Shown: positions 3,137 through 64,000, numbered from the stretch's first letter. The stretch is DNA of 64,000 bases from Syntrophaceae bacterium (GCA_013388645.1 JACAEV010000230.1:1716-65715), one strand, 5' to 3'. Notes: generated by a model from the sequence alone, not told the origin. A program made the numbers and translations.

Positions 3137-3670
3137 ATGATCCCGACCAGGGAGGAATGCTTAAAGCTAATGGGTGATTTTGGAATGTTAGACAACATTG
3201 TCGCCCATAGCCTTGAAGTGGCAAGAGTGGCCCTTTTCCTCTCAAAGGAGTTGAATAAGAGGGGTCAACGGATTTCTCTCGAATTAGTGGAGGCCGCCTC
3301 TTTATTGCACGATCTGACCAAGACGGCATGCCTCAAAACCAAAGAAGATCACGCCAGGACTGGGTCTCAGCTTTTAAAGCAGTTGGGATATGAACGGGTC
3401 GGGGAGGTCGTCGCACAACATATCTGGTTGGGCAAAAAAGAAGATCCTTTGACCCTCTCCGAAGAGGAGATTGTCAATTATGCAGATAAACGTGTGATGC
3501 ATGATCGCATTGTCACATTGGATGAGAGGTTTCACGATCTTAAAGACCGATATGGGAGAGACCAGAAGGCCATTGACTATTTAGATCGAATGGAAAAAGA
3601 GATTTACGGGATTGAACAAAAAATATTTTTTATTTTACAGACTGACCCTGATGAACTTCTGACCCTTTGA
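3137..3670 (+). CDS. HD domain phosphohydrolase
   Basis: H..E...LLHDLTK places the HD-motif histidine and aspartate. Track start 3125 is TTG; ATG at 3137 has a GGAG RBS at -6. Confidence 0.6.
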   Translation: MIPTREECLKLMGDFGMLDNIVAHSLEVARVALFLSKELNKRGQRISLELVEAASLLHDLTKTACLKTKEDHARTGSQLLKQLGYERVGEVVAQHIWLGKKEDPLTLSEEEIVNYADKRVMHDRIVTLDERFHDLKDRYGRDQKAIDYLDRMEKEIYGIEQKIFFILQTDPDELLTL

Positions 3671-3684
3671 CGGAAGATAGAAAT

Positions 3685-4836
3685 ATGGCAGATCTTTCTT
3701 TTGAACAAGGTCCCATCCGTCCGCCCAGTGAAGCTTACAGCCTCCTGTTGCGCGTGACGCGAAACTGCCCCTGGAACCGGTGTGAGTTTTGTCATACCTA
3801 CAAGCATAAGAAATTTAGTCTCAGGCGTGTGGAGGAAATAAAAAAAGATATTGACATCGTCCGAGAGATCGTCTCAGAGATCAAAAGCTTATCATGGAAA
3901 TACGGATTTGGAGGAGGGATCACGGTTCCTCTGGTCAATCTCATTTTACAAGATCCCCAGCATTTTTCTGATGGATTTCGGAGTGTGGCGTTATGGCTTT
4001 ATGAAGGAGGGAAGAATGTCTTTCTTCAGGACGGCGATAACCTGATCCTCAAAACCAGTGAATTGGTCGAGATATTAAGATATTTAAAAGAGACGTTTCC
4101 TTCCATCGAGAGGATCACCACTTACGCTCGGGCTAAAACGGTTTCAAAAAAGAAGGTCGAAGAACTTCAGGACCTCTATCGAGCTGGAATATCCAGAATT
4201 CATATTGGTCTGGAAACAGGATATCATCCGCTCCTTCAATATATCCAAAAAGGAGTGACCCCCCAGGAACATATCGAAGCGGGTAGAAAGGTCAAGGAAT
4301 CTGGGATCTCCCTCTCCGAATATGTGGTGCTGGGCTTGGGAGGAAAGGGAATGTGGCGGGAACACGCACTCCAAACGGCAATGGTTCTGAACCAAATCAA
4401 CCCCGACTTCATCCGGGTTCGAACATTAAAGGTGTTAAAGACCATGCCCCTTTATCAAAAAATTGAATCAAAGGAATTCGTCCTGCTCAATGATGATGAG
4501 ATCATTGAAGAGGAAAGGTTATTGATCCAATCATTGGAGGGGATTACCAGTCGGTTTGTCAGTGATCACATCTTAAACCTGCTCGAAGAGGTGGAAGGGA
4601 AATTTCCGGAAGAGAAGGAGAAGATGCTCAGCATCATCGATCGATATCTCGCTCTTCCGAAAGAAGAAAAAGAGAACTTTCGCTTGGGGAGAAGGGCAGG
4701 AGTCTACCGCTCGCTGGAGGATCTTGATCAACCCGAGCTCAGAGAAAAAGTGGAAGAGGCTCTTTTACAGATCGAAAAGAAGGGGCCAGGGGAGATTGAG
4801 AAGGTCCTCTCCGATTTAATGGAGTCCTTTATATGA
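3685..4836 (+). CDS. Radical SAM-like protein with a variant CX4CX2C cluster motif
   Basis: RNCPWNRCEFCH near the N-terminus, then a TIM-barrel-like IHIGLETG segment. Track start 3667 is TTG; ATG at 3685 has a better RBS. It is translationally adjacent to the HD protein. Confidence 0.5.
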   Translation: MADLSFEQGPIRPPSEAYSLLLRVTRNCPWNRCEFCHTYKHKKFSLRRVEEIKKDIDIVREIVSEIKSLSWKYGFGGGITVPLVNLILQDPQHFSDGFRSVALWLYEGGKNVFLQDGDNLILKTSELVEILRYLKETFPSIERITTYARAKTVSKKKVEELQDLYRAGISRIHIGLETGYHPLLQYIQKGVTPQEHIEAGRKVKESGISLSEYVVLGLGGKGMWREHALQTAMVLNQINPDFIRVRTLKVLKTMPLYQKIESKEFVLLNDDEIIEEERLLIQSLEGITSRFVSDHILNLLEEVEGKFPEEKEKMLSIIDRYLALPKEEKENFRLGRRAGVYRSLEDLDQPELREKVEEALLQIEKKGPGEIEKVLSDLMESFI

Positions 4837-34377: not shown

Positions 34378-35778
34378 TCAATCCCCTTGGGGATCCAGCC
34401 CGTGATTTAATCCATATTTCTCTAATCGATAACGCATGGAACGGAAATTAATGTGGAGGAGCTCTGCGGCTTTCTTTTTTATCCCTCTTGTTCTATCCAA
34501 GGCCTTCAACAGAAGAGTTCTCTCGAGTTCCTCAACAATTTTCTCCAGATCAATGCCCTCATTGGGAAGGTCGATGTCGATCGCTCCTTTTTTCAGCAAA
34601 GGCTGTTCACTCAAGTAAGAATTTAAATTGACCGCCATCAATTCTTGAGTTCCCTCTAATGCGACGGCTCGTTCGATAATATTTTGGAGCTCTCTGACGT
34701 TTCCCGGATACTCATAGCGGAGAAGAAGTTGGAGCGTTTCGGGAGAGATCTTGAGAATATTTTTATTTAATTCTTCTGAGTATTTTTTTAAGAAATGGTG
34801 TGCGAGAAGTGGAATGTCTTCTCGCCGCTCCCGGAGAGGTGGGAGTTTGATCTGGATCACATTGAGACGGTAAAATAAATCTTCGCGGAACAATTTTTCT
34901 CGCACCGCTCCTTCGAGATCCTTATTGGTCGCAGAGATGATTCGGACATCCACACGGATATCTTCTGTCCCCCCCACTCTCTTAAATTCTTTATCTTGTA
35001 ATACCCGCAGTAATTTCACCTGCATGAGGAGAGGAAGCTCGCTGATCTCGTCCAAAAAGATGGTCCCTTCATCGGCCACCTCAAACAATCCCTTTTTCGT
35101 AGCGATGGCATCCGTAAACGCTCCTCGCATGTGTCCAAAGAGTTCACTTTCAATGAGGGATTCAGGAATGGCCCCGCAATTTAATGTGACGAACGGTTTC
35201 TCTTTCCTGGGACTATTATAGTGGATCGCCTTGGCGACCAGCTCTTTCCCTGTCCCGCTTTCTCCGGTGATTAAGATATTGGTTTTCGTCGGGGAAACCT
35301 TCTCCAACAGGTCGTAGAGGGCCACCATTTTGGGACTCTGGCCGATGATGTTTCCGAAATGATATCGGTCTCTGACCACCTGCTTGAGGAGGATATTCTC
35401 CGTCTGTAAGTTTTTCTTTTCTAACGCATTTTTTATAATCAGCTTGATCTCTTCTACTTTGAAAGGTTTCGTGATGTAATCATAGGCCCCCTCCTTCATC
35501 GCTTTGATCGCCGTATCGGCAGAGGCATAAGCGGTGATCATGATGACAATGGTCTCGGGTGTGATCGCTTTAATCTTTTTTAATGTGGCGATGCCATCCA
35601 ATTTCGGCATCCGAATATCCAGGAGGACCAGATCGAAAAGATCATTTTCGATCAACTTGACGACTTCTTCCCCATTTGCAGCCAGAGAAACTTTATACCC
35701 TTCCTTTTTGAGCATGATCTCTAAAAATTCCCTCATGCTCTGTTCATCATCGGCAACTAATATTTTATCTTTCAGCAT
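34378..35778 (-). CDS. pilR: Sigma-54-dependent response regulator (NtrC family), PilR-like
   Basis: REC domain (ILVADDE), AAA+ sigma-54 activator (GESGTGKE, GAFTDA, ESELFGH) and C-terminal Fis-type HTH. It sits next to the pilS-like kinase and pil genes. Track start 35796 overlaps the kinase; ATG at 35778 has an AAAGGA RBS. Confidence 0.75.
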   Translation of the reverse strand: MLKDKILVADDEQSMREFLEIMLKKEGYKVSLAANGEEVVKLIENDLFDLVLLDIRMPKLDGIATLKKIKAITPETIVIMITAYASADTAIKAMKEGAYDYITKPFKVEEIKLIIKNALEKKNLQTENILLKQVVRDRYHFGNIIGQSPKMVALYDLLEKVSPTKTNILITGESGTGKELVAKAIHYNSPRKEKPFVTLNCGAIPESLIESELFGHMRGAFTDAIATKKGLFEVADEGTIFLDEISELPLLMQVKLLRVLQDKEFKRVGGTEDIRVDVRIISATNKDLEGAVREKLFREDLFYRLNVIQIKLPPLRERREDIPLLAHHFLKKYSEELNKNILKISPETLQLLLRYEYPGNVRELQNIIERAVALEGTQELMAVNLNSYLSEQPLLKKGAIDIDLPNEGIDLEKIVEELERTLLLKALDRTRGIKKKAAELLHINFRSMRYRLEKYGLNHGLDPQGD

Positions 35779-35788
35779 GCTCGATCCT

Positions 35789-37513
35789 TTATTCATCCGA
35801 TGGGAGAAAGAGGGTAAAGGTCGATCCCCTCCCTAACTCGCTTTCCACTTTGACGAGGCCATTGTGATTTTCGATGATTTTATGAACGATTGAAAGACCC
35901 AATCCTGTTCCATTTTCTTTGGTCGTGAAAAAGGGTTCGAATATTTTTTCTTTCTCATCAGGGGCGATCCCTTTTCCAGTGTCGGTGATCGATATCTTCA
36001 CCCATTCCTTCCCCTTGGAGGAGAGGGGGATGCGGGGCCCCTCTCCGTCACTTCCTTTTCTTAATTGGACCTGGATGTCTCCTCCCTTGGACATTGCTTG
36101 GGCAGCATTGTTGAAAAGGTTCCAAAAGACCTGCCTCATCTGATCTGGATCGATGGAGACACGGATTTCCGACTGGTGGTTGGGTCGAAGGATACGAATT
36201 CCCTCATGGAAAGAAGGGGAATGGTGGAATAGATCGATGGTCTCATCAATAATTTTTTCAATCGGATAGAAGATCTTATGGGTATGTGGAGGTTGAGCGA
36301 AAAGCAGAAAATCGGTGATCAAGGCATTGAGCCTCTCTGATTCTCGTAAGGTAATATCCATGAGATGCTGCTGGTGATCGTCCAAGGAGAGTTCCGATTT
36401 TAACATTTGAATCGATCCACTCAGGGAGGCCAAGGGGTTTCTAATCTCATGTGCCATGCCTGCCGCCAAAACACCGACTGCAGCCATGGTATCGACTCGT
36501 TTCATCTGTTCTTCCATCTCTTTGAATTGGGTGATGTCCTGGAAGATAAGGGTATGGCCGATCAAAGACCCATCTGGATTGGTGAGAGGGGAGATGGAAA
36601 ACCCAAGATATATTTTTTCCCCTTGAGGATTGGTCAAGAGGGTTTCATAACGTTGATACTCGGAGGAGGGCTGGCTTTCCTTTCTCTTGCTATTTTGGAG
36701 AACCTCATGAAGTTTGGGGAACAGGTCGAAAATAGAAGTCTCCTCTAATTTTTCCCCATTCCGATTCAAGATCTTTTCGGCCGTCCGGTTTAAAAAGTTT
36801 ATTTTTCCAGAGAGATCAATTGTCAAAAGTCCGCTGTCCAGGCTTTGAATAATATTTCGGTTAAAGGTCTCTAATTGGTTGTAATCCACCTGCTTCTGGA
36901 TCAACTCTTTTTTCTTTTTCTTTAATTCCTCTGAAACGATACTGCTTAAAAAGGCAACGATATAGAAAGCGGCCATGTAGATGACCAGGGAATAAAAGAT
37001 TTGGCTCGGATCGTAGGATGGGGATTGGCCGAAGGGATGAATCCAATGATGAAGCTGCAAAAGTAACAAAAGCCCATAAAGCAAGGAGGAGAAGGAGGCC
37101 GAAAAAAAGGCCCCTCGTTTATAGAAAATCATGCTGCTTCCGATAATTGTGAAGATATAAGTGATGGGGAAAAAGCTTTCTTTGCCACCCGTGAAATAAA
37201 TTAAGGCGGTAATGAAAAGATGGTCAGTGGCTATCTGAAAGAAGGCATATCGATCGAGATTTTTTACTTTTTTTATGAAGATCGCATAAACGATGGTGAT
37301 CAAGTAAAAAAAGCTGATGAAATAATAAAAGTAGTTGGTCAAATGGATAAAGAAGTATTTCTTTTCAGAAAGCTGAAATAGAAGGGAAATGGTGAGGAGA
37401 AGGGTGAGGATGATGATTCGCCCTAACATCAATCCTTTTAGATTTTTAAGCATTTTCTGATGTGTCTCTGTTGAAAGGGCGTCGTTCCTGTTCATGGGAA
37501 TCCAACCATTCAT
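35789..37513 (-). CDS. pilS: PAS-domain sensor histidine kinase, PilS-like
   Basis: Multi-TM N-terminus, PAS, HisKA (H-box AHEIRNPL) and HATPase_c (GTGLGLSIV). Start is uncertain: TTG at 37531, ATG at 37513 or ATG at 37495. Confidence 0.6.
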   Translation of the reverse strand: MNGWIPMNRNDALSTETHQKMLKNLKGLMLGRIIILTLLLTISLLFQLSEKKYFFIHLTNYFYYFISFFYLITIVYAIFIKKVKNLDRYAFFQIATDHLFITALIYFTGGKESFFPITYIFTIIGSSMIFYKRGAFFSASFSSLLYGLLLLLQLHHWIHPFGQSPSYDPSQIFYSLVIYMAAFYIVAFLSSIVSEELKKKKKELIQKQVDYNQLETFNRNIIQSLDSGLLTIDLSGKINFLNRTAEKILNRNGEKLEETSIFDLFPKLHEVLQNSKRKESQPSSEYQRYETLLTNPQGEKIYLGFSISPLTNPDGSLIGHTLIFQDITQFKEMEEQMKRVDTMAAVGVLAAGMAHEIRNPLASLSGSIQMLKSELSLDDHQQHLMDITLRESERLNALITDFLLFAQPPHTHKIFYPIEKIIDETIDLFHHSPSFHEGIRILRPNHQSEIRVSIDPDQMRQVFWNLFNNAAQAMSKGGDIQVQLRKGSDGEGPRIPLSSKGKEWVKISITDTGKGIAPDEKEKIFEPFFTTKENGTGLGLSIVHKIIENHNGLVKVESELGRGSTFTLFLPSDE

Positions 37514-37534
37514 ATTTTTGAGAGAGCACAAATT

Positions 37535-45251: not shown

Positions 45252-45342
45252 GTGATGGCAAGGAAGCCCGTTTGGTCAATGGTCAAAAGGCGAAGGGAAA
45301 GCCGTAAAGGCCAACGACCTCACCCTTCTACCAAACAGGCAT

Positions 45343-45357
45343 CTTTACCTTAACCTT
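45343..45357. repeat. Telomere-like CTTTACCTTAACCTT motif, copy upstream of lepB
   Basis: A member of the CCTTAA/CCTAA repeat family seen at five intergenic sites in the window. Confidence 0.5.
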
Positions 45358-46976: not shown

Positions 46977-47052
46977 GGTAATTCCTTGACTTTAACCCAA
47001 AAAAATATAAAATAGTATCGTAATATTTTCAATGTGATGAGTCATGAATGAG

Positions 47053-47072
47053 GGTTACCCTAACCTTAACCC
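47053..47072. repeat. Telomere-like GGTTACCCTAACCTTAACCC motif, immediately 5' of tRNA-Leu
   Basis: A CCCTAACCTTAACCC copy of the same repeat family; it ends 10 nt before the tRNA. Confidence 0.5.
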
Positions 47073-47082
47073 AGGTTTAAAA

Positions 47083-47171
47083 GCCGAAGTGGCGGAATTG
47101 GTAGACGCGCTAGATTCAGGGTCTAGTGGGAAGTAGTTCCTGTAGGGGTTCGAGTCCCCTCTTCGGCACCA
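47083..47171 (+). tRNA. tRNA-Leu (anticodon CAG)
   Basis: Acceptor stem GCCGAAG/CTTCGGC, D-arm GCGG..CGCG, anticodon stem CTAGA/TCTAG with loop TTCAGGG, long variable arm, T-arm AGGGG-TTCGAGT-CCCCT, and encoded CCA. Confidence 0.85.
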
Positions 47172-49258: not shown

Positions 49259-49267
49259 TATAATAAC

Positions 49268-49312
49268 GGAACCGGCACCTCAACCTCAACCTTAACCTTA
49301 ACCTTAACCTTA
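49268..49312. repeat. Tandem hexamer array (CCTCAA)2(CCTTAA)5 in the divergent mrcA/GT2 intergenic region
   Basis: Perfect head-to-tail 6-nt units, 35 nt upstream of the candidate -35 of the GT2 gene. Confidence 0.8.
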
Positions 49313-49346
49313 ACCTTAACCTTTTTACTCTTTTCTGTATAAATTC

Positions 49347-54498: not shown

Positions 54499-56046
54499 TC
54501 ATTCGATCGGTATATCAATCCCTCTTTCTCCTGGGGATTTAGGGTCCCAGAGAAAAAGATACATGGAGGCATCAGTTGGAAATTTATTGAAATTGAGAAA
54601 ACTTCCATCAAAATAACCCTTTAAAACAGCTGGAGAGTTTCCCTTCAATTTTTTCGCAGTCTTTTCTCCTGTAACAATCCATAATCGGCTACCATCTTCA
54701 ATATATCTGGTACAACAGGTTTTGGAATAATATATCGTATATTTCTTATTTTGAAAAATGAACGATTTTCTGAACTCAATCTCATTTTCTGAAATTTTAA
54801 AATAGGGAATCGAATAATGCCGTCCTTCAGGATATACCCCAAAATAATGAAGGATGCCTGGCATATAAGCCATGTCGCTATCAAAAAGTTTATCTCCCTC
54901 TCGAAGCTGATTTTTTAAGTAACTGACAAGGCCCCTGAAATCCTCCTTCTCAGCGTGGTAATAAGGTGGAAGAATCACAAGATTAGATGCGATAAAGAGG
55001 ATAACAAAAAGGAGTCTTAGTCGCATTATTTTTTTTAATTTTTCAAATCTATTTTCAATAGCACTAAGGGACATATATAGGGTAATAAGGAAAAGAGGCA
55101 AAAAACTGATAAGATACCTCGAGGTAATGAAATGGAAAATATTAAATAATCTACAAAACAGAAATAGTCCGCCGATCGGTAAGATGAAAAGACCAAAAAG
55201 AATAAGTGCATTCGTCCAAGGTTTTGAAACGAGAAGCAAAGAAATCGAAAGGACTACCGAAACAACCGTGAGAGGGGCATAGGGTGCCCAATCATTTAAC
55301 ACATTAGATAAAATACTCCAAAGAGGGGTAATAACCTTGAGTTCGTAAGGATGGATCATAGATTGACCATGGTAATTTAGGGCCAAGAAAAGTATCCAGG
55401 GAATACAGAGCAAAAGGAGGATACTATTTAAAATTAAAAAATAATAAAAGCGAGGTTTTTTATTTTGCCCATTCACTTGATAGAACCATAAAATCTGGGA
55501 CAGTATAATAAATAAGATGGTGCTATAACTCGTGTAGAATAATGTCGCAAAGGGAAAAGGGATCATTACCAAATATCGTTTTTTTGAAGTCTTCAAATAT
55601 TTTATAAAAAAATAAAGGCTCAAAATCCCTAAAAACATTGTCAGTGAATAGGCTCGTCCATCTTGGGAAAGGCTGATGTGATAGGCCATGAAGGTTAAGG
55701 AAATTGCACATGGAAGGCCAATAGCTGGAGAAAATAATCTTGCAAGCAGATAGATCATAGGGATGGAAAGGGTTCCGAAAATTAAAGGAATGATACGAAG
55801 ATCTCGTTCAGGCTTTGTAAATGGATGAAATAAATGAGTAAGAATAAAAAAGAGGGGAGGGTGAAGGTAGGTCGGGTTTTCTTTATAATATTTTAGTTGG
55901 TTTTGGATGTCATCTCGCGAGTCATTGAAAGTGTGAATTTCATCAAGCCATAGAGACTTTTGATCATAAGTATAGATCCGCAGGGTAAAACCTATGAGGA
56001 GGCAAAGAATCAGAATAAATATTTCTTTCCGCTTTGGGTTATTCAT
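54499..56046 (-). CDS. GT-C family glycosyltransferase (GT39/ArnT/PMT_2-like), paralog 1
   Basis: First-loop W.DEIHT..DSRDD acidic motif, YLHPPLFF, at least 10 TM helices, and a C-terminal periplasmic domain. Track TTG at 56121 is replaced by ATG 56046, based on alignment to paralog 2 (MNNPKRKEIFILILCLLIGF vs MNKIVKKDILILILCLIIGF). Confidence 0.65.
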   Translation of the reverse strand: MNNPKRKEIFILILCLLIGFTLRIYTYDQKSLWLDEIHTFNDSRDDIQNQLKYYKENPTYLHPPLFFILTHLFHPFTKPERDLRIIPLIFGTLSIPMIYLLARLFSPAIGLPCAISLTFMAYHISLSQDGRAYSLTMFLGILSLYFFIKYLKTSKKRYLVMIPFPFATLFYTSYSTILFIILSQILWFYQVNGQNKKPRFYYFLILNSILLLLCIPWILFLALNYHGQSMIHPYELKVITPLWSILSNVLNDWAPYAPLTVVSVVLSISLLLVSKPWTNALILFGLFILPIGGLFLFCRLFNIFHFITSRYLISFLPLFLITLYMSLSAIENRFEKLKKIMRLRLLFVILFIASNLVILPPYYHAEKEDFRGLVSYLKNQLREGDKLFDSDMAYMPGILHYFGVYPEGRHYSIPYFKISENEIEFRKSFIFQNKKYTIYYSKTCCTRYIEDGSRLWIVTGEKTAKKLKGNSPAVLKGYFDGSFLNFNKFPTDASMYLFLWDPKSPGERGIDIPIE

Positions 56047-56124
56047 AACAAGCTTATTATTACACCCTGAACATAGCCCTTTTACAAAACAGGCCTCTTG
56101 ACCGTCAGGTAAGGTCTGCAATAT

Positions 56125-59034: not shown

Positions 59035-59466
59035 ATGTTAAGGAGAGAAAAAGGTTTTACATTGATTGAGTTGTTGATCGTTATTGCCATCATCGGTATT
59101 TTGGCCGCTATCGCCATTCCGATGTATAAGACACAGACAATCAAAGCGAAAATGACAGAAGTCACAAATGGGATGAGTAATGTGGCAAGCGCAGTGGCTG
59201 CCTATATGCAGGAAACAGGCGGTTGGCCTACTGCTGGATCTGCAGCACTAATTCAGAGTAGCTTAGGTGTATCAACCGGAGCCCTATCAAGAATTTCCTC
59301 TCTCGCAGTAAATCAAGGTGTAATTACTGCAGTGGTAACAGCTATTGATGCAACCGTTGATGGCAGAAATTTAGTTATGACTCCGACTTCAAATGCAGAT
59401 GGCTCTATAATCTGGAACTGGACCACTACAAACAATATGCCACCTGCGTATATTCCTAAACGGTAA
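59035..59466 (+). CDS. pilA: Type IVa major pilin (PilA-like)
   Basis: Prepilin leader MLRREKG|[22 protein letters not shown] with Glu at +5. AAAGGAGG RBS. The C-terminal segment is Ser/Thr-rich (TPTSNADGS...WTTTNN). Confidence 0.85.
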   Translation: MLRREKGFTLIELLIVIAIIGILAAIAIPMYKTQTIKAKMTEVTNGMSNVASAVAAYMQETGGWPTAGSAALIQSSLGVSTGALSRISSLAVNQGVITAVVTAIDATVDGRNLVMTPTSNADGSIIWNWTTTNNMPPAYIPKR

Positions 59467-59496
59467 TTTAAAAATTCGTGGAGTTTAACTTTCTCT

Positions 59497-59552
59497 TTTG
59501 TTGGTGCTCGAAGACTGTTAATTTCTTCGGGCACCAACAAATCTTTTTTATT
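59497..59552 (+). terminator. Rho-independent terminator between pilin 1 and pilin 2
   Basis: TTGTTGGTGCTCGAAG...CTTCGGGCACCAACAA stem (one G-U) followed by ATCTTTTTTATT. Confidence 0.7.
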
Positions 59553-59589
59553 GTGAAAGTAAATCTTTACTGTGCAGTAAGGATTTAAA

Positions 59590-60033
59590 GTGAAAAAAAA
59601 TAACCCAGGCTTTACTCTGATTGAATTATTAGTGGTTATTGCAATCATAGGCATTTTGGCCGCTGTTGCGCTTCCAATGTACAGAGGCTATACGGTTATG
59701 GCTAAATTGTCTGAAGTGGAGAATGCAATGTCCACTGTTGCAAGTGGCCTTACAGGATATTATCACGAACAAAATTCTTGGCCTGATTGTCCTACGATAA
59801 ATGAGGTCAGAAACAGTTTGGGGGTGTCATTGGGGGCAATCTCACGGGTTTCTGCATTATCTGTTTCAGGTGTGAATGGAATGATTACAGCAACAATACA
59901 AGATATTCATTTTATGGTGGACGGAAAAACATTAACATTGACACCGAGTACAAGTAACGATAGTTCAATAACTTGGAATTGGGGATGGTCCCTTGATTTT
60001 CCTCCTCAGTTTAGACCTAAAAGTGGCAGGTAA
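59590..60033 (+). CDS. Type IVa pilin paralog
   Basis: MKKNNPG|[25 protein letters not shown] start with AAGGA RBS. C-terminal S/T-rich [14 protein letters not shown] parallels pilin 1. Confidence 0.8.
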
Positions 60034-60035
60034 AG

Positions 60036-60425
60036 ATGAAATCAAAAAAAGGAATTACATTGATAGAATTATTGGTCGTGATCGTGATTGTAGGTGTTCT
60101 TGCAGCCATAGCTGTTCCTCTTTATACGAATTATATGCAAAGAGCCCGGAGAGCCGATGCCAAAACAGCATTGGAGCAGTTAAGGGCAGCACAAGAGATG
60201 TTTAGGGCAGAAAGAGGGGTTTATTCCACGGATATCGCCCAGCTGAGAGGAACATGGGGGGTACCTGCTGTATCCGGAGATTATGCTATATTATTAAACT
60301 CAGCAACCGCAACCACTTTTCTTGGGCAAGCTGATCCGAGTGGAAGTCCAAGGCAGGCGAGTGACGGAAGCTTATTTATTAATCAGGATGGGGTTAAAAC
60401 CCCTGCGGACAAATGGGCCAAATGA
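60036..60425 (+). CDS. Minor pilin, PilE/FimT-like
   Basis: MKSKKG|[22 protein letters not shown]; YTNYMQRARRADAKTALEQL resembles the PilE/FimT-type minor-pilin motif. It overlaps the pilin 2 stop. Confidence 0.7.
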   Translation: MKSKKGITLIELLVVIVIVGVLAAIAVPLYTNYMQRARRADAKTALEQLRAAQEMFRAERGVYSTDIAQLRGTWGVPAVSGDYAILLNSATATTFLGQADPSGSPRQASDGSLFINQDGVKTPADKWAK

Positions 60426-60563
60426 AGTATTTTCCATGGATTAAAGGAATGGTGGAAGAATGGAATGATGGGAAAGGAAAGGGCAGGGGGAATAATGGAA
60501 GGGTGGAAGGATGGGTAAAATAACATAAAACATAGGGCATAGAGTATAGAGCTAACTAAATAG

Positions 60564-60598
60564 AAAGCAAGATAATGATTTATCTTGCTTTTTTTATT
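60564..60598 (+). terminator. Rho-independent terminator after the pilin operon
   Basis: AAGCAAGATA...TATCTTGCTT stem followed by TTTTTTTATTT. Confidence 0.6.
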
Positions 60599-60619
60599 TA
60601 ATCGATATAATAAGGAATA

Positions 60620-60974
60620 ATGAAACCAGAAATACAGGAAAAAAGCGGCCATTGGGCAAAGGCGAGGATGCGCAGTCATTCTTCACGGTTATTACAGAAC
60701 AACACACGATATTGATCTCCTTGTGGATTCTTCCATAGAGAATATAAAACGATTAAAGAAAGCCTTTCAGGATTTATTTAAATCTGATGAAATATCTGAA
60801 GTTCGCGATGTCGATATAGATCAGTATGCCGTTGTCAGATTCGCTCCGGAATCCAAAGAGATCGTGATTGACATGATCGGTAAGATAAAGAGGACCTGCT
60901 CTTTCTATTGGGGGAAAAAGAATACCTTGAAAAATAATTATAACTATTTATCATTTAACGTCCATATTTCCTAA
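60620..60974 (+). pseudogene. Nucleotidyltransferase-like gene interrupted by a +1 frameshift at an A6 tract
   Basis: ATG at 60620 (MKPEIQEK) is in frame A. After the A6 run at 60639-60644, frame B encodes AAIGQRRGCAVILHGYYRTTHDIDLLVDSS..., an NTase-like G..R.....DIDLLV motif. Frame B has no ATG before GTG 60723. Confidence 0.4.
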
Positions 60975-60986
60975 AAGGTCATATGC

Positions 60987-61397
60987 ATGGCTGAATTCAA
61001 AACAGAGCAAGTAAAGGACAAGCTGGCGCCAATATTTAAGGAAGAAGGGCTACAGCTCGTTTTGCTTTTTGGATCTGTTGCTTCGGGAAAAGAATACAAA
61101 AAAAGCGATATCGACCTTGGATTCTTATTTGATAGACCTATTGATATATTAGCCCTTACTAATCGAGTGATTCAGCTTTTGAAAACGGATAAAGTTGATG
61201 TGGTTGATTTAAGGCGTGCAAGTCCCCTTTTGAAATTTTCAGCAATCCGACAGGGAAAACTGCTTTTTGAACAGACCTTGGGTCTTTTCAATGTCTTTCA
61301 GTCTTTAACTTTCCGAATATATGTTGATACAAAAAAATTACGTGATGCGCAGGAAAAGGCAATTCAAAATTTTCTTGGAGAAAGAGGACTTATATGA
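60987..61397 (+). CDS. mntA: MntA-type nucleotidyltransferase antitoxin (type VII TA)
   Basis: LFGSVASGKEYKKSDIDLGF gives the GS...DxD Pol-beta NTase motif. 136 aa. Confidence 0.8.
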   Translation: MAEFKTEQVKDKLAPIFKEEGLQLVLLFGSVASGKEYKKSDIDLGFLFDRPIDILALTNRVIQLLKTDKVDVVDLRRASPLLKFSAIRQGKLLFEQTLGLFNVFQSLTFRIYVDTKKLRDAQEKAIQNFLGERGLI

Positions 61398-61822
61398 GTC
61401 CCATCGAAGCCCAAATCATCAAAAGGAAACTTGCTGTTATTATAGAAAATCTTAAGACTCTTGAGCCGATTAAGAGCATGAATGCAGATGAATATTTACA
61501 GGATTTATTCAAAAGGAAAGCAACTGAAAGGCTTTTACAAGAATTGATCGAAGCAGCCGTTGATATAAATATACACATAATTGTTGAGACAGGACATACC
61601 GTTCCTGATGATTATTACGAAAGTTTTATAAAAGTAGGGGAACTTAAAATCATTTCTTTAGACCTTGCCCAGAAACTTGCACCCTCAGCGGGTCTTAGGA
61701 ACAGATTGGTCCATGAATATGATCGGCTTGAACATTCCATGGTACTCAAGGCTGTAAATATGGCTGAAGAACTATACTCGAGATACGTTAAAGAAATCAA
61801 TGATTATATTTCAATTGTGTAG
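61394..61822 (+). CDS. hepT: HepT-type HEPN toxin (DUF86)
   Basis: RNRLVHEYDRLE is the R-x4-H HEPN motif. It has a 4-nt ATGA overlap with mntA. Confidence 0.8.
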   Translation: MSPIEAQIIKRKLAVIIENLKTLEPIKSMNADEYLQDLFKRKATERLLQELIEAAVDINIHIIVETGHTVPDDYYESFIKVGELKIISLDLAQKLAPSAGLRNRLVHEYDRLEHSMVLKAVNMAEELYSRYVKEINDYISIV

Positions 61823-62243
61823 ACCCCTTAGTGCTTGAAAACATAAAAGCAATAGAAAAAGCTGAGGTTCGATAAACCTGTAGAAAGTCCAAGGTTCTAA
61901 TTTTTACCATACCCTCCTGAATTCCTGGCTTCCTTATAAATAAAATCCTGATAAATGGCATAAAGTTTGCTTTTTCAAGTAAATAATTATTTCATTATTC
62001 CTCATTAATTTATTTTTCTTTATAAAATTGAATAGTTAAACGATTTTATTTTTTGCTCGTAAATGTTCGGAATATGAACAGTGATCAGAAATTGTCCTCA
62101 ATTTACAAAAGTTGTTAAAAAAAGTAACAAACCGATAGGAAGTTTGGATTATAGAAATGTTGGAATAATGGATTAATTACTCTTTTATTTCAGCCTTTTC
62201 AACATTTCATAATTCCAATATTCCATTATTCCGGAATTAAGAG

Positions 62244-63218
62244 ATGGATCTTTCCGTCATTATTCCAATGTTTAATGAATCTGAAAATGCAGAGTCTACC
62301 CTGAATCGGGTTAGGGAGGCATTGGCTTCTTTTAAAGGAAGCTATGAGATTATTCCTGTCAATGACGGAAGCCTCGATAATACTCTTGAGATTTTAAATA
62401 GATTGGCTGAAAAGGATGAGAAGTTAAAGATCGTTACTTACCCCAAAAATATTGGACGTGGAATGGCTTTAAGGAAGGGATTCCAGGAATCAAAAGGAGA
62501 GATTGTCGTATCGATTGACGCTGATTTGAGTTATGACCCTCATTATATATTTGATTTTATCAAGACATTTAAAGAAGGCCCTGAGATTGATTTTGTCCTT
62601 GCATCACCTTATATGCCTGGAGGAGGGGTTCAAAACGTCCCCTTTCATCGATTGTGGATCAGTAAATGGGGAAACAAGATACTTCGTTTAACCATGCCAA
62701 ACCGAATTTATACGTCAACCGGAATATTTCGTGCTTACCGTAAAAAAGTACTTGACTCACTTGAACTTGAGTCTGACGGGAAGGAGATCCATCTTGAGAT
62801 CCTTTCAAAAGCCTTAGCCTTAGGATTCCGGGTTAAGGAAATCCCTGCGGTTTTATCCAGCCGTAGAAAAGGAAAATCAAAATTTAAATTTAAAAAAACA
62901 GCCACTTCCCATCTCGTATTCTCTGCCTTTGAAAAGCCAATGATTATATTTGGTTTCCTTGGCCTGCTAACACTTGGGATTGGATTATTGATGGGTATAT
63001 ATGTAGCCTTTCTGAGATTTTCAGGAGGTTTAACGCCGGGAAGACCATTAATAACGTTTGTCATTTTGTTGATTTTAGGAGGAATTCAAATCCTTTCGTT
63101 TGGGTTTATCGCATTGCAAATAGTTTCGCTTAGAAGAGAAATATTGAGAATCCAGAAGGAAAATCTCGAATTGCGATGCGATCTGAAAGACCTGAATAAG
63201 GGTAATGGCCAGGGTTAA
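62244..63218 (+). CDS. GT2 polyprenol-phosphate sugar synthase paralog with C-terminal TM helices
   Basis: VIIPMFNES, NDGSLDNT and IDADLSYDP (DxD) motifs. Two C-terminal TM helices. The C-terminal codons (..GNGQG*) run into the telomere-like repeat. Confidence 0.75.
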   Translation: MDLSVIIPMFNESENAESTLNRVREALASFKGSYEIIPVNDGSLDNTLEILNRLAEKDEKLKIVTYPKNIGRGMALRKGFQESKGEIVVSIDADLSYDPHYIFDFIKTFKEGPEIDFVLASPYMPGGGVQNVPFHRLWISKWGNKILRLTMPNRIYTSTGIFRAYRKKVLDSLELESDGKEIHLEILSKALALGFRVKEIPAVLSSRRKGKSKFKFKKTATSHLVFSAFEKPMIIFGFLGLLTLGIGLLMGIYVAFLRFSGGLTPGRPLITFVILLILGGIQILSFGFIALQIVSLRREILRIQKENLELRCDLKDLNKGNGQG

Positions 63219-63945
63219 GATGCCCGTTTAGGTAAAGGTTTGGGTTAAGTCCAAACATAGAAAATAAATCATGGGTAAAGGTTAAGGTTAAGACGCCGGT
63301 TTAGTAGTTGGGTTAGGTAATTTGGCTTTAAATCTTTGGCCATAACCTTTACCCTTAACCAAACTGTCCTCCAAGCTTTAACCCTTTTAAGGGAAGACAA
63401 ACGGCATATTGGTAAGGGGCAAGATGCAAGTTTGGATAAGTTGTAAGTGAGGGAAAAATGCCGGACAAAGATAAGAAATCAATAACGAGTTTTAAAGGAC
63501 TGGAGGTCTATCAGAACTCTTACAAAACTTGTACTAAAGTCATGACCCCAATTATACCGAACTTACCTGAATCAGAAAAATATGATTTAAAACGTCAGTT
63601 AAGTGAATCCGTGAAGGCTATACCCAGATTAATCGCTGAAGGATACGCGAAAAGACACCAAAGGCAAGGATTTCAAAAATATTTAGATGATGCTATGGCA
63701 GAGTGCAATGAAACGATCGTAGGGATGGAAATGTGCAAGGATTTCTTTGGAAAATATGTTGACACTAAATTGTGTGAGGAGTTGGTTAGTATCTATGACG
63801 TTTGTGGAAGACAGCTTTACAGGTTGCGGGCTGCCTGGGGAAAGTTCCCAAGAGAAAAGAGTCTTCGGTCTAAAGGTTAGTATGCCTTAACCTATTGTCC
63901 TAACCTAAACGGGCCTCCTAACCTTAACCTTTACCTTGGCCAGAG
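63219..63945. mobile_element. Candidate small inserted element: four-helix-bundle gene bracketed by inverted telomere-like repeats
   Basis: Left arm GCCCGTTTAGGTAAAGG (63222-) and right arm CCTAACCTAAACGGGCctcCTAACCTTAACCTTTACC (63901-63936). They share the inverted 12-mer ACCTAAACGGGC/GCCCGTTTAGGT. A nested 90-nt palindromic unit lies at 63273-63360. Confidence 0.35.
63458..63880 (+). CDS. Four-helix-bundle protein (23S rRNA intervening-sequence protein family)
   Basis: 140 aa, all-helical, with GLEVYQNSYK...LIAEGYAKR...ECNET matching the TIGR02436/PF05635 pattern. Good GAGGGAAAA RBS. Confidence 0.75.
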   Translation: MPDKDKKSITSFKGLEVYQNSYKTCTKVMTPIIPNLPESEKYDLKRQLSESVKAIPRLIAEGYAKRHQRQGFQKYLDDAMAECNETIVGMEMCKDFFGKYVDTKLCEELVSIYDVCGRQLYRLRAAWGKFPREKSLRSKG

Positions 63946-64000
63946 TTCCTTGGTTTCCTTATGAATATTCTATTCCTCACAAATGCTTACCCTGACTTTG

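Follow-up and report, generated by a model that had tools for sequence, protein, structure and literature searches.

A small gene of the kind normally found inside the excised inserts of ribosomal RNA sits between two sugar-transferase genes in a Syntrophaceae contig, enclosed by a long hairpin; the same hairpin, usually without the gene, is scattered through MAGs labelled as many bacterial phyla, which suggests a family of selfish elements of which we found no earlier description in an incomplete literature. The contig segment analysed (64,000 nucleotides, GCA_013388645.1 JACAEV010000230.1:1716-65715, hereafter the window) belongs to a Syntrophaceae MAG whose 4HB, CN-hydrolase, and GT2 proteins match NCBI entries at 100%; an exact-sequence look-up of the window protein found nothing on record. 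The gene in question (63458-63880, plus strand) encodes a 140-aa four-helix-bundle (4HB) protein of the 23S-rRNA-IVS-protein/Avd-like family (PF05635, E 3.4e-16, 59.8 bits against a cut-off of 33.8; TIGR02436, E 3.1e-13, 49.9 bits against a cut-off of 24), and is enclosed by inverted arms of 31-33 nt which are hexamer-periodic, (GGTNAN)n, around a conserved core, GAWGCCNGTTT / AAACNGGCYTC.

Upstream lies a GT2 glycosyltransferase gene (62244-63218, plus strand; PF00535, E 1.5e-29) with its TAA stop at 63216-63218. The distal left arm (63201-63249, plus strand) consists of in-phase hexamers GGTAAT GGCCAG GGTTAA, core GATGCCCGTTTAG (63219-63231), and then GGTAAA GGTTTG GGTTAA, so that the last ~6 GT2 codons (GNGQG + TAA) are encoded by the arm. 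The right arm (63883-63945, plus strand) reads ...CCTAACC, core TAAACGGGCCTC, and then CTAACC TTAACC TTTACC TTGGCC; its boundary with the conserved GT4 leader lies at ~63941-63945, the leader TTCCTTGGTTTCCTTATG being shared with loci that lack the element, and the downstream GT4-family glycosyltransferase gene (MNILFLTNAYPDF..., 63961-64000, plus strand) runs off the window. A repeat search pairs 63274-63304 with 63905-63935 (31 nt, 90% complementary) and 63201-63233 with 63903-63935 (33 nt, 82%), and the shared 12-mer GCCCGTTTAGGT (63223-63234) and its complement ACCTAAACGGGC (63903-63914) are exact. This is not chance: the 19-mer GGTAAAGGTTAAGGTTAAG with up to 3 mismatches occurs 10 times in the window against 0.02 expected, and the minimum-free-energy RNA fold of 63195-63950 pairs the arms with z = -3.2.

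These results confirm the features described in an earlier note, which proposed a free-standing, repeat-bracketed 23S-IVS-family module that may have remodelled the GT2 C-terminus and is consistent with mobility or with an RNA-processing hairpin, but two corrections are required. The repeat does not begin 3 nt after the GT2 stop, as the note had it, but at about 63201, inside the last six GT2 codons, and the stop codon is part of the arm. Moreover, the left arm is present three times (from 63200, 63273, and 63404). The middle copy belongs to a nested ORF-less hairpin unit in flipped orientation (63273-63383, minus strand; -34.6 kcal/mol), comprising the arm copy 63273-63304, a loop ...GGCTTTAAATCTTTGGCC..., and a degenerate partner arm at 63340-63376, with a nested palindrome pairing 63272-63290 with 63343-63361; an nhmmer search with the hairpin profile hits 63280-63383 with a score of 47.5 on the minus strand against 34.1 on the plus strand. 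The proximal copy (63404-63445, plus strand; 69% identical to the distal arm) has a degenerate core GATGCAAGTTTGG, is followed by a purine-rich Shine-Dalgarno-like GAGGG (63449-63453), and is positionally equivalent to the single arm of loci L001 and L005 (L numbers denote the individual loci compared).

At this locus the cassette is an old, vertically inherited feature rather than a recent insertion. Proteins 71-88% identical to the query lie in the same order in many metagenome contigs (type IV pilins, ComP-like pilin, GT2, 4HB, GT4, GT4, HTH_24), and the arms are conserved there. In the window itself, a PilS/PilR two-component pair and three type IV pilin genes, one ComP-like, lie around the glycosyltransferase genes (34378-37531 and 59035-60425), placing the cassette in a pilin/glycosylation neighborhood. 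In 28 of about 38 distinct junctions GT2 ends (G-x)n-G-stop, with TAA or TAG exactly 3 nt before the GATGCC core; where that stop is lost, GT2 reads through the core to give ...QDASLGKV-stop, and the arm is therefore translated as the GT2 tail. GT2 orthologs without the element have unrelated tails, supporting remodelling of the GT2 C-terminus.

The arms belong to the gene family and not to the locus. Paralogs at 64-70% identity with the same core lie between a PilS-like kinase and a PilR-like regulator, after a gene ending ...WYLYLNR-stop, or upstream of the same GT2 or on both sides of it (L065), and share the architecture (GGTNAN)n-GAWGCCNGTTTNG ... ATG-ORF-stop ... NAAACNGGCYTC-(NTNACC)n. 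Of 67 distinct loci, 57 gave a clean pair of cores; five loci (L041, L062, L063, L064, and L078) were dropped from the arm alignment by eye because their core picks were spurious, and a few (L061, L067) have no arms. Because duplex folding of long flanks over-extended, arms were aligned in core-anchored registers; a 50-nt ungapped register was too long for the paralogs. In the resulting alignment of 57 loci, 71.8% of cells are paired against 67.5 +/- 0.6 in shuffles (0 of 500 as high), the covariation score is 0.181 against 0.128 (0 of 500), and slid registers fall to 30-46%; within-locus complementarity also exceeds all 2000 between-locus permutations. The covariation signal may, however, partly reflect two sequence dialects, that is, relatedness rather than structure; some positions are conserved mismatches (for example column 24/75), and the core (GCC.GT.T / A.AC.GGC) is nearly invariant. 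Folding each whole element (500-650 nt) closes it with at least 15 arm-arm pairs, mostly 25-32, in 52 of 57 cases.

The protein is strongly constrained, with 49 invariant columns among 24 homologs at 61-87% identity, and is basic (pI 9.1). An AlphaFold2 model of moderate confidence (pLDDT 71.8) predicts four helices (16-35, 38-64, 71-97, and 103-129); the best Foldseek matches are XCC0516 (2GSC; E 3.7e-3, TM 0.63/0.77), BT_0352 (2RLD), and Avd (4DWL), with a further match to Avd inside the RT-RNA complex 8UB8, and the sequence profile matches 2GSC at E 3.5e-5. The gene can nonetheless decay in place: in L036, L046, and L074, copies at the GT2 locus are interrupted by in-frame stops (68-74 aa remaining) while the arms persist.

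The hairpin exists mostly without the gene. The window has a second, ORF-less copy at 45252-45357 (nhmmer score 58.8 on the plus strand), filling the spacer between a CN-hydrolase gene and the signal peptidase I gene, and a solo right-arm-like core (GAACCGGCACCTC) at 49265-49323 (plus strand) followed by (AACCTT) x ~8 (period 6, 7.8 copies), with no partner arm and no fold. Weaker traces include an arm-like segment at 56056-56106 (AAAACAGGCCTCTTGACC), 15-65 nt inside the 5′ end of the minus-strand PMT_2-family ORF 54499-56121, where either an arm contributes N-terminal codons or the true start is further downstream, and a hexamer fragment at 47040-47075 (GGGTTACCCTAACCTTAACCC) immediately upstream of the only tRNA gene in the window (47083-47168). 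CN-hydrolase homologs fall into two length groups, 275-288 aa and 294-310 aa, and the longer forms may read into downstream repeat sequence as GT2 does. A genome scan found the arm pattern in at least 118 loci, giving 101 distinct hairpins, and 133 of 136 partnered arms have loops under 250 nt; only four loci have a 4HB gene within the stretch examined (at most 8 kb), and several MAGs have 3-7 contigs with hits. Of the long-loop cases, L095 and L112 were a different repeat and two separate hairpins around an ordinary gene. The MAGs are labelled Syntrophaceae/Thermodesulfobacteriota, Omnitrophota, Nitrospirota, Planctomycetota, Bacteroidota, Patescibacteria, and others, although these labels may include mis-binned contigs. 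Rfam finds only a tRNA in the window and no rRNA in 36 related loci, and no Rfam family matches the element at the gathering threshold or at E <= 1. Using a crude gene caller, hairpins with neighbors on both sides within 300 nt lie between co-directional genes in 36 cases, divergent genes in 4, and convergent genes in 3.

Five lines of evidence support movement of the family. Specifically, i) eight ORF-less hairpins align collinearly with the joined ends of ORF-bearing elements, the left arm plus the first ~3 codons being followed directly by the last ~11 codons (TTTAAGAGAGACGATAAACGTAACC...TAA) plus the right arm; all eight share one deletion junction, their flanks are unrelated to one another (0 tblastx pairs), and they come from six MAGs, two of which hold two copies each, a MITE-like pattern demonstrated for this subgroup only, the other hairpins having similar loop motifs; ii) at the CN-hydrolase/LepB junction the window has a hairpin, L211 an internally deleted remnant, L213 a hairpin of the other dialect, and L214 and L216 none; iii) of the 120 best GT2 orthologs, 41 end GxGxG-stop and 79 have other tails, and where the cassette is lacking the slot holds a GxxExxY/PDDEXK_3 gene (TIGR04256, E 9e-41) overlapping the GT2 stop (ATGA) in L081, L084, and L089 (~3440-3830), L220 (3533-3916), and L223 (2622-2780, truncated), or only a 70-nt spacer in L222, with no arm core near the GT2 3′ end in any of these; iv) the window has an extra ~135-nt hairpin unit between arm and ATG, the nested unit, that the closest ortholog L010 lacks; and v) the window's PilS and PilR genes overlap by 8 nt with no element between them, whereas L087, L091, and L092 have the element between such a pair, although identity is only 33-52% and orthology is uncertain. 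In addition, ORF-less hairpins lie in tandem directly next to ORF-bearing elements, upstream or downstream of the 4HB ORF, in L064, L068, L071, L075, L076, L079, L086, L087, L088, and L091, suggesting either insertion into or beside existing arms, or unequal recombination between arms.

We consider it more likely than not that the region is an IVS-like hairpin cassette, a ~740-bp module (about 63201-63945) in which a functional 4HB gene occupies the loop of a long imperfect palindrome, and that it belongs to a dispersed repeat family which is, or was, mobile, and whose commonest form is a ~100-nt ORF-less hairpin that, for the subgroup examined, derives from the ORF-bearing form by internal deletion. 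No plus-strand promoter-like or terminator-like site lies between GT2, 4HB, and GT4, and co-transcription is therefore assumed. The arms would then form a stem, mostly 25-32 bp, around the ORF, which should be long enough for cleavage by RNase III; cleavage, which is inferred and for which, as for transcription, there is no direct evidence, would release the 4HB message and uncouple the flanking cistrons. In the paralog type, the inner stem (GGTTACGT / ACGTAACC) abuts the start and stop codons, and so may also gate translation. The precedent is the Coxiella IVS, which has a 28-bp terminal stem with an S23p ORF in the loop, is excised by RNase III in vitro, and has tandem short repeats upstream of the ATG (PMC4990558).

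Several results leave a role in the host RNA plausible but unproven. The core of the stem is conserved in sequence and hardly covaries, which fits protein or enzyme recognition better than a purely structural RNA, and consensus folding of 40 ORF-less hairpins (RNAalifold) kept only the invariant core pairs; G.U (181) and A.C (189) mismatches are equally frequent on the sense strand; ORF-less hairpins show no significant orientation bias relative to their flanking genes (23 sense, 13 antisense, p = 0.13); and they fold no better on the mRNA strand than on the opposite strand (p = 0.47), a mild asymmetry following the element's own orientation instead. Selection on pairing in the host mRNA is therefore not demonstrated, and a DNA-level or protein-recognition role for the core is equally compatible with the data.

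The element could instead be an ordinary DNA transposon derivative (MITE), with arms that are terminal inverted repeats recognized by a transposase encoded elsewhere, a passenger 4HB gene, and an incidental RNA hairpin. The near-invariant core in copies labelled as different phyla, the lack of a significant orientation bias and of an mRNA-strand folding preference, the many dispersed copies, and the deletion derivatives would all fit, but we regard this as a less likely alternative: the outer hexamers vary in number and the element ends are fuzzy, no target-site duplication was visible (although fold-based end calling was unreliable), no transposase-bearing full-length element with these arms was found among the 118 genome loci, and the only cargo ever seen is the same strongly conserved 4HB gene, whose first and last codons are retained in the ORF-less derivatives examined. 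Nor was there any sign of a phage vector, since viral contigs gave 3 arm hits and no close 4HB relative. Alternatively, and more doubtfully, the element may depend on 4HB, the Avd-like, perhaps ring-forming protein binding the hexamer-periodic arms (RNA or single-stranded DNA) as the element's own maintenance or mobility factor, or as a trans-acting regulator of every operon that carries an ORF-less hairpin. Constraint on this basic protein, its fold match to the pentameric XCC0516 and to Avd, conservation of the arm core in sequence rather than only in pairing, and a parent/derivative relation mirroring that of autonomous and non-autonomous elements are consistent with such a role; however, there are no binding data and no catalytic motif, some copies of the gene are decaying, and most hairpin loci in the genome scan have no 4HB gene within 8 kb, although genome-wide co-occurrence could not be tested.

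Two other explanations are very unlikely. Evolution in place, as an operon-internal regulatory or stabilizing RNA structure for this glycosylation cluster and not part of any repeat family, would account for the conserved position and the integration with the GT2 stop codon, but is contradicted by the same core and hexamers at unrelated loci in the window, at paralog sites, and in more than 100 MAG loci. The gene could also be the Avd accessory gene, or a remnant, of a diversity-generating retroelement (DGR), since PF05635 is the Avd-like family (PMC10053308) and the fold matches 4DWL and 8UB8; but no reverse transcriptase is called within about 3 kb on either side in any of the 12 orthologous loci with gene calls, where the neighbors are pilins, GT2, GT4, and HTH_24, and hairpin embedding is not a DGR feature. 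An integron attC reading was also dropped on inspection, as the arms flank the ORF in inverted orientation, no integrase was seen, and the core does not fit GTTRRRY.

Among known systems, the ORF-bearing IVSs of 23S rRNA (Coxiella burnetii, Leptospira) likewise carry a PF05635-family ORF in the loop of a ~0.4-0.7-kb insert closed by a ~28-33-bp stem of terminal inverted repeats, lie inside a transcribed unit (for the present element this is inferred), and exist in short ORF-less versions (PMC4990558; CPR rRNA insertions), but the present element lies between protein-coding genes and not in helix 25 or 45 of 23S rRNA, and its arm supplies codons and the stop codon to the upstream gene. The Neisseria Correia/NEMIS and enterobacterial ERIC elements are probably comparable as multi-copy, ~100-150-nt imperfect palindromes in short operon spacers, whose transcripts form long hairpins that in NEMIS may be RNase III targets; Correia elements appear to have sharp 26-bp terminal repeats and a TA target duplication not seen here at our unreliably called ends, while the present family has a protein-coding parent form and hexamer-periodic arms and spans MAGs labelled as many phyla. 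REP/REPIN elements with their RAYT gene seem to resemble it only in layout, since here the flanked gene is a 140-aa helical bundle and not an HUH Y1 transposase, the repeats lack the REP GTAG signature, and the ORF-less units examined are deletion derivatives of the gene-bearing unit. Literature searches by family name found no description of free-standing hairpin-embedded PF05635 genes, and searches by core sequence gave only chance 10-mer hits, but the literature searched was incomplete and prior description cannot be excluded.

The origin and function of rRNA IVSs and of the PF05635 proteins they encode have been open since the early 1990s, and are still called unclear (PMC4990558); a free-living, multi-copy version of the same architecture, with gene-bearing parents, deletion derivatives, and lineage-specific gains and losses, would make the idea that IVSs are mobile elements directly testable. 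It remains possible, though we think it improbable, that these hairpins are a previously unrecognized class of selfish element whose only gene is an Avd-like 4HB protein; that the protein binds the periodic arms and is needed for spread or retention, for example through an RNA or single-stranded hairpin intermediate with a host polymerase or RT; that the ~100-nt ORF-less hairpins are its non-autonomous derivatives; and that the IVSs of 23S rRNA are the same elements that happened to land in rRNA. Whatever their origin, the hairpins represent about 100 nt of conserved structured sequence, absent from Rfam, inside operons of many uncultivated phyla, and could affect operon expression.

A second periodic-repeat family, of GGAATRAT-type octamers, lies nearby at 60438-62232, where a left block (60438-60514) and an inverted right block (62197-62232; 25 nt, 80% complementary, 1694 nt apart) bracket an 83-aa ORF plus an MNT/HepT (HEPN) toxin-antitoxin pair. 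Orthologous loci have a DUF433/PIN pair or nothing at this site, and the same repeats fill spacers in L214, L216, L220, and L223.
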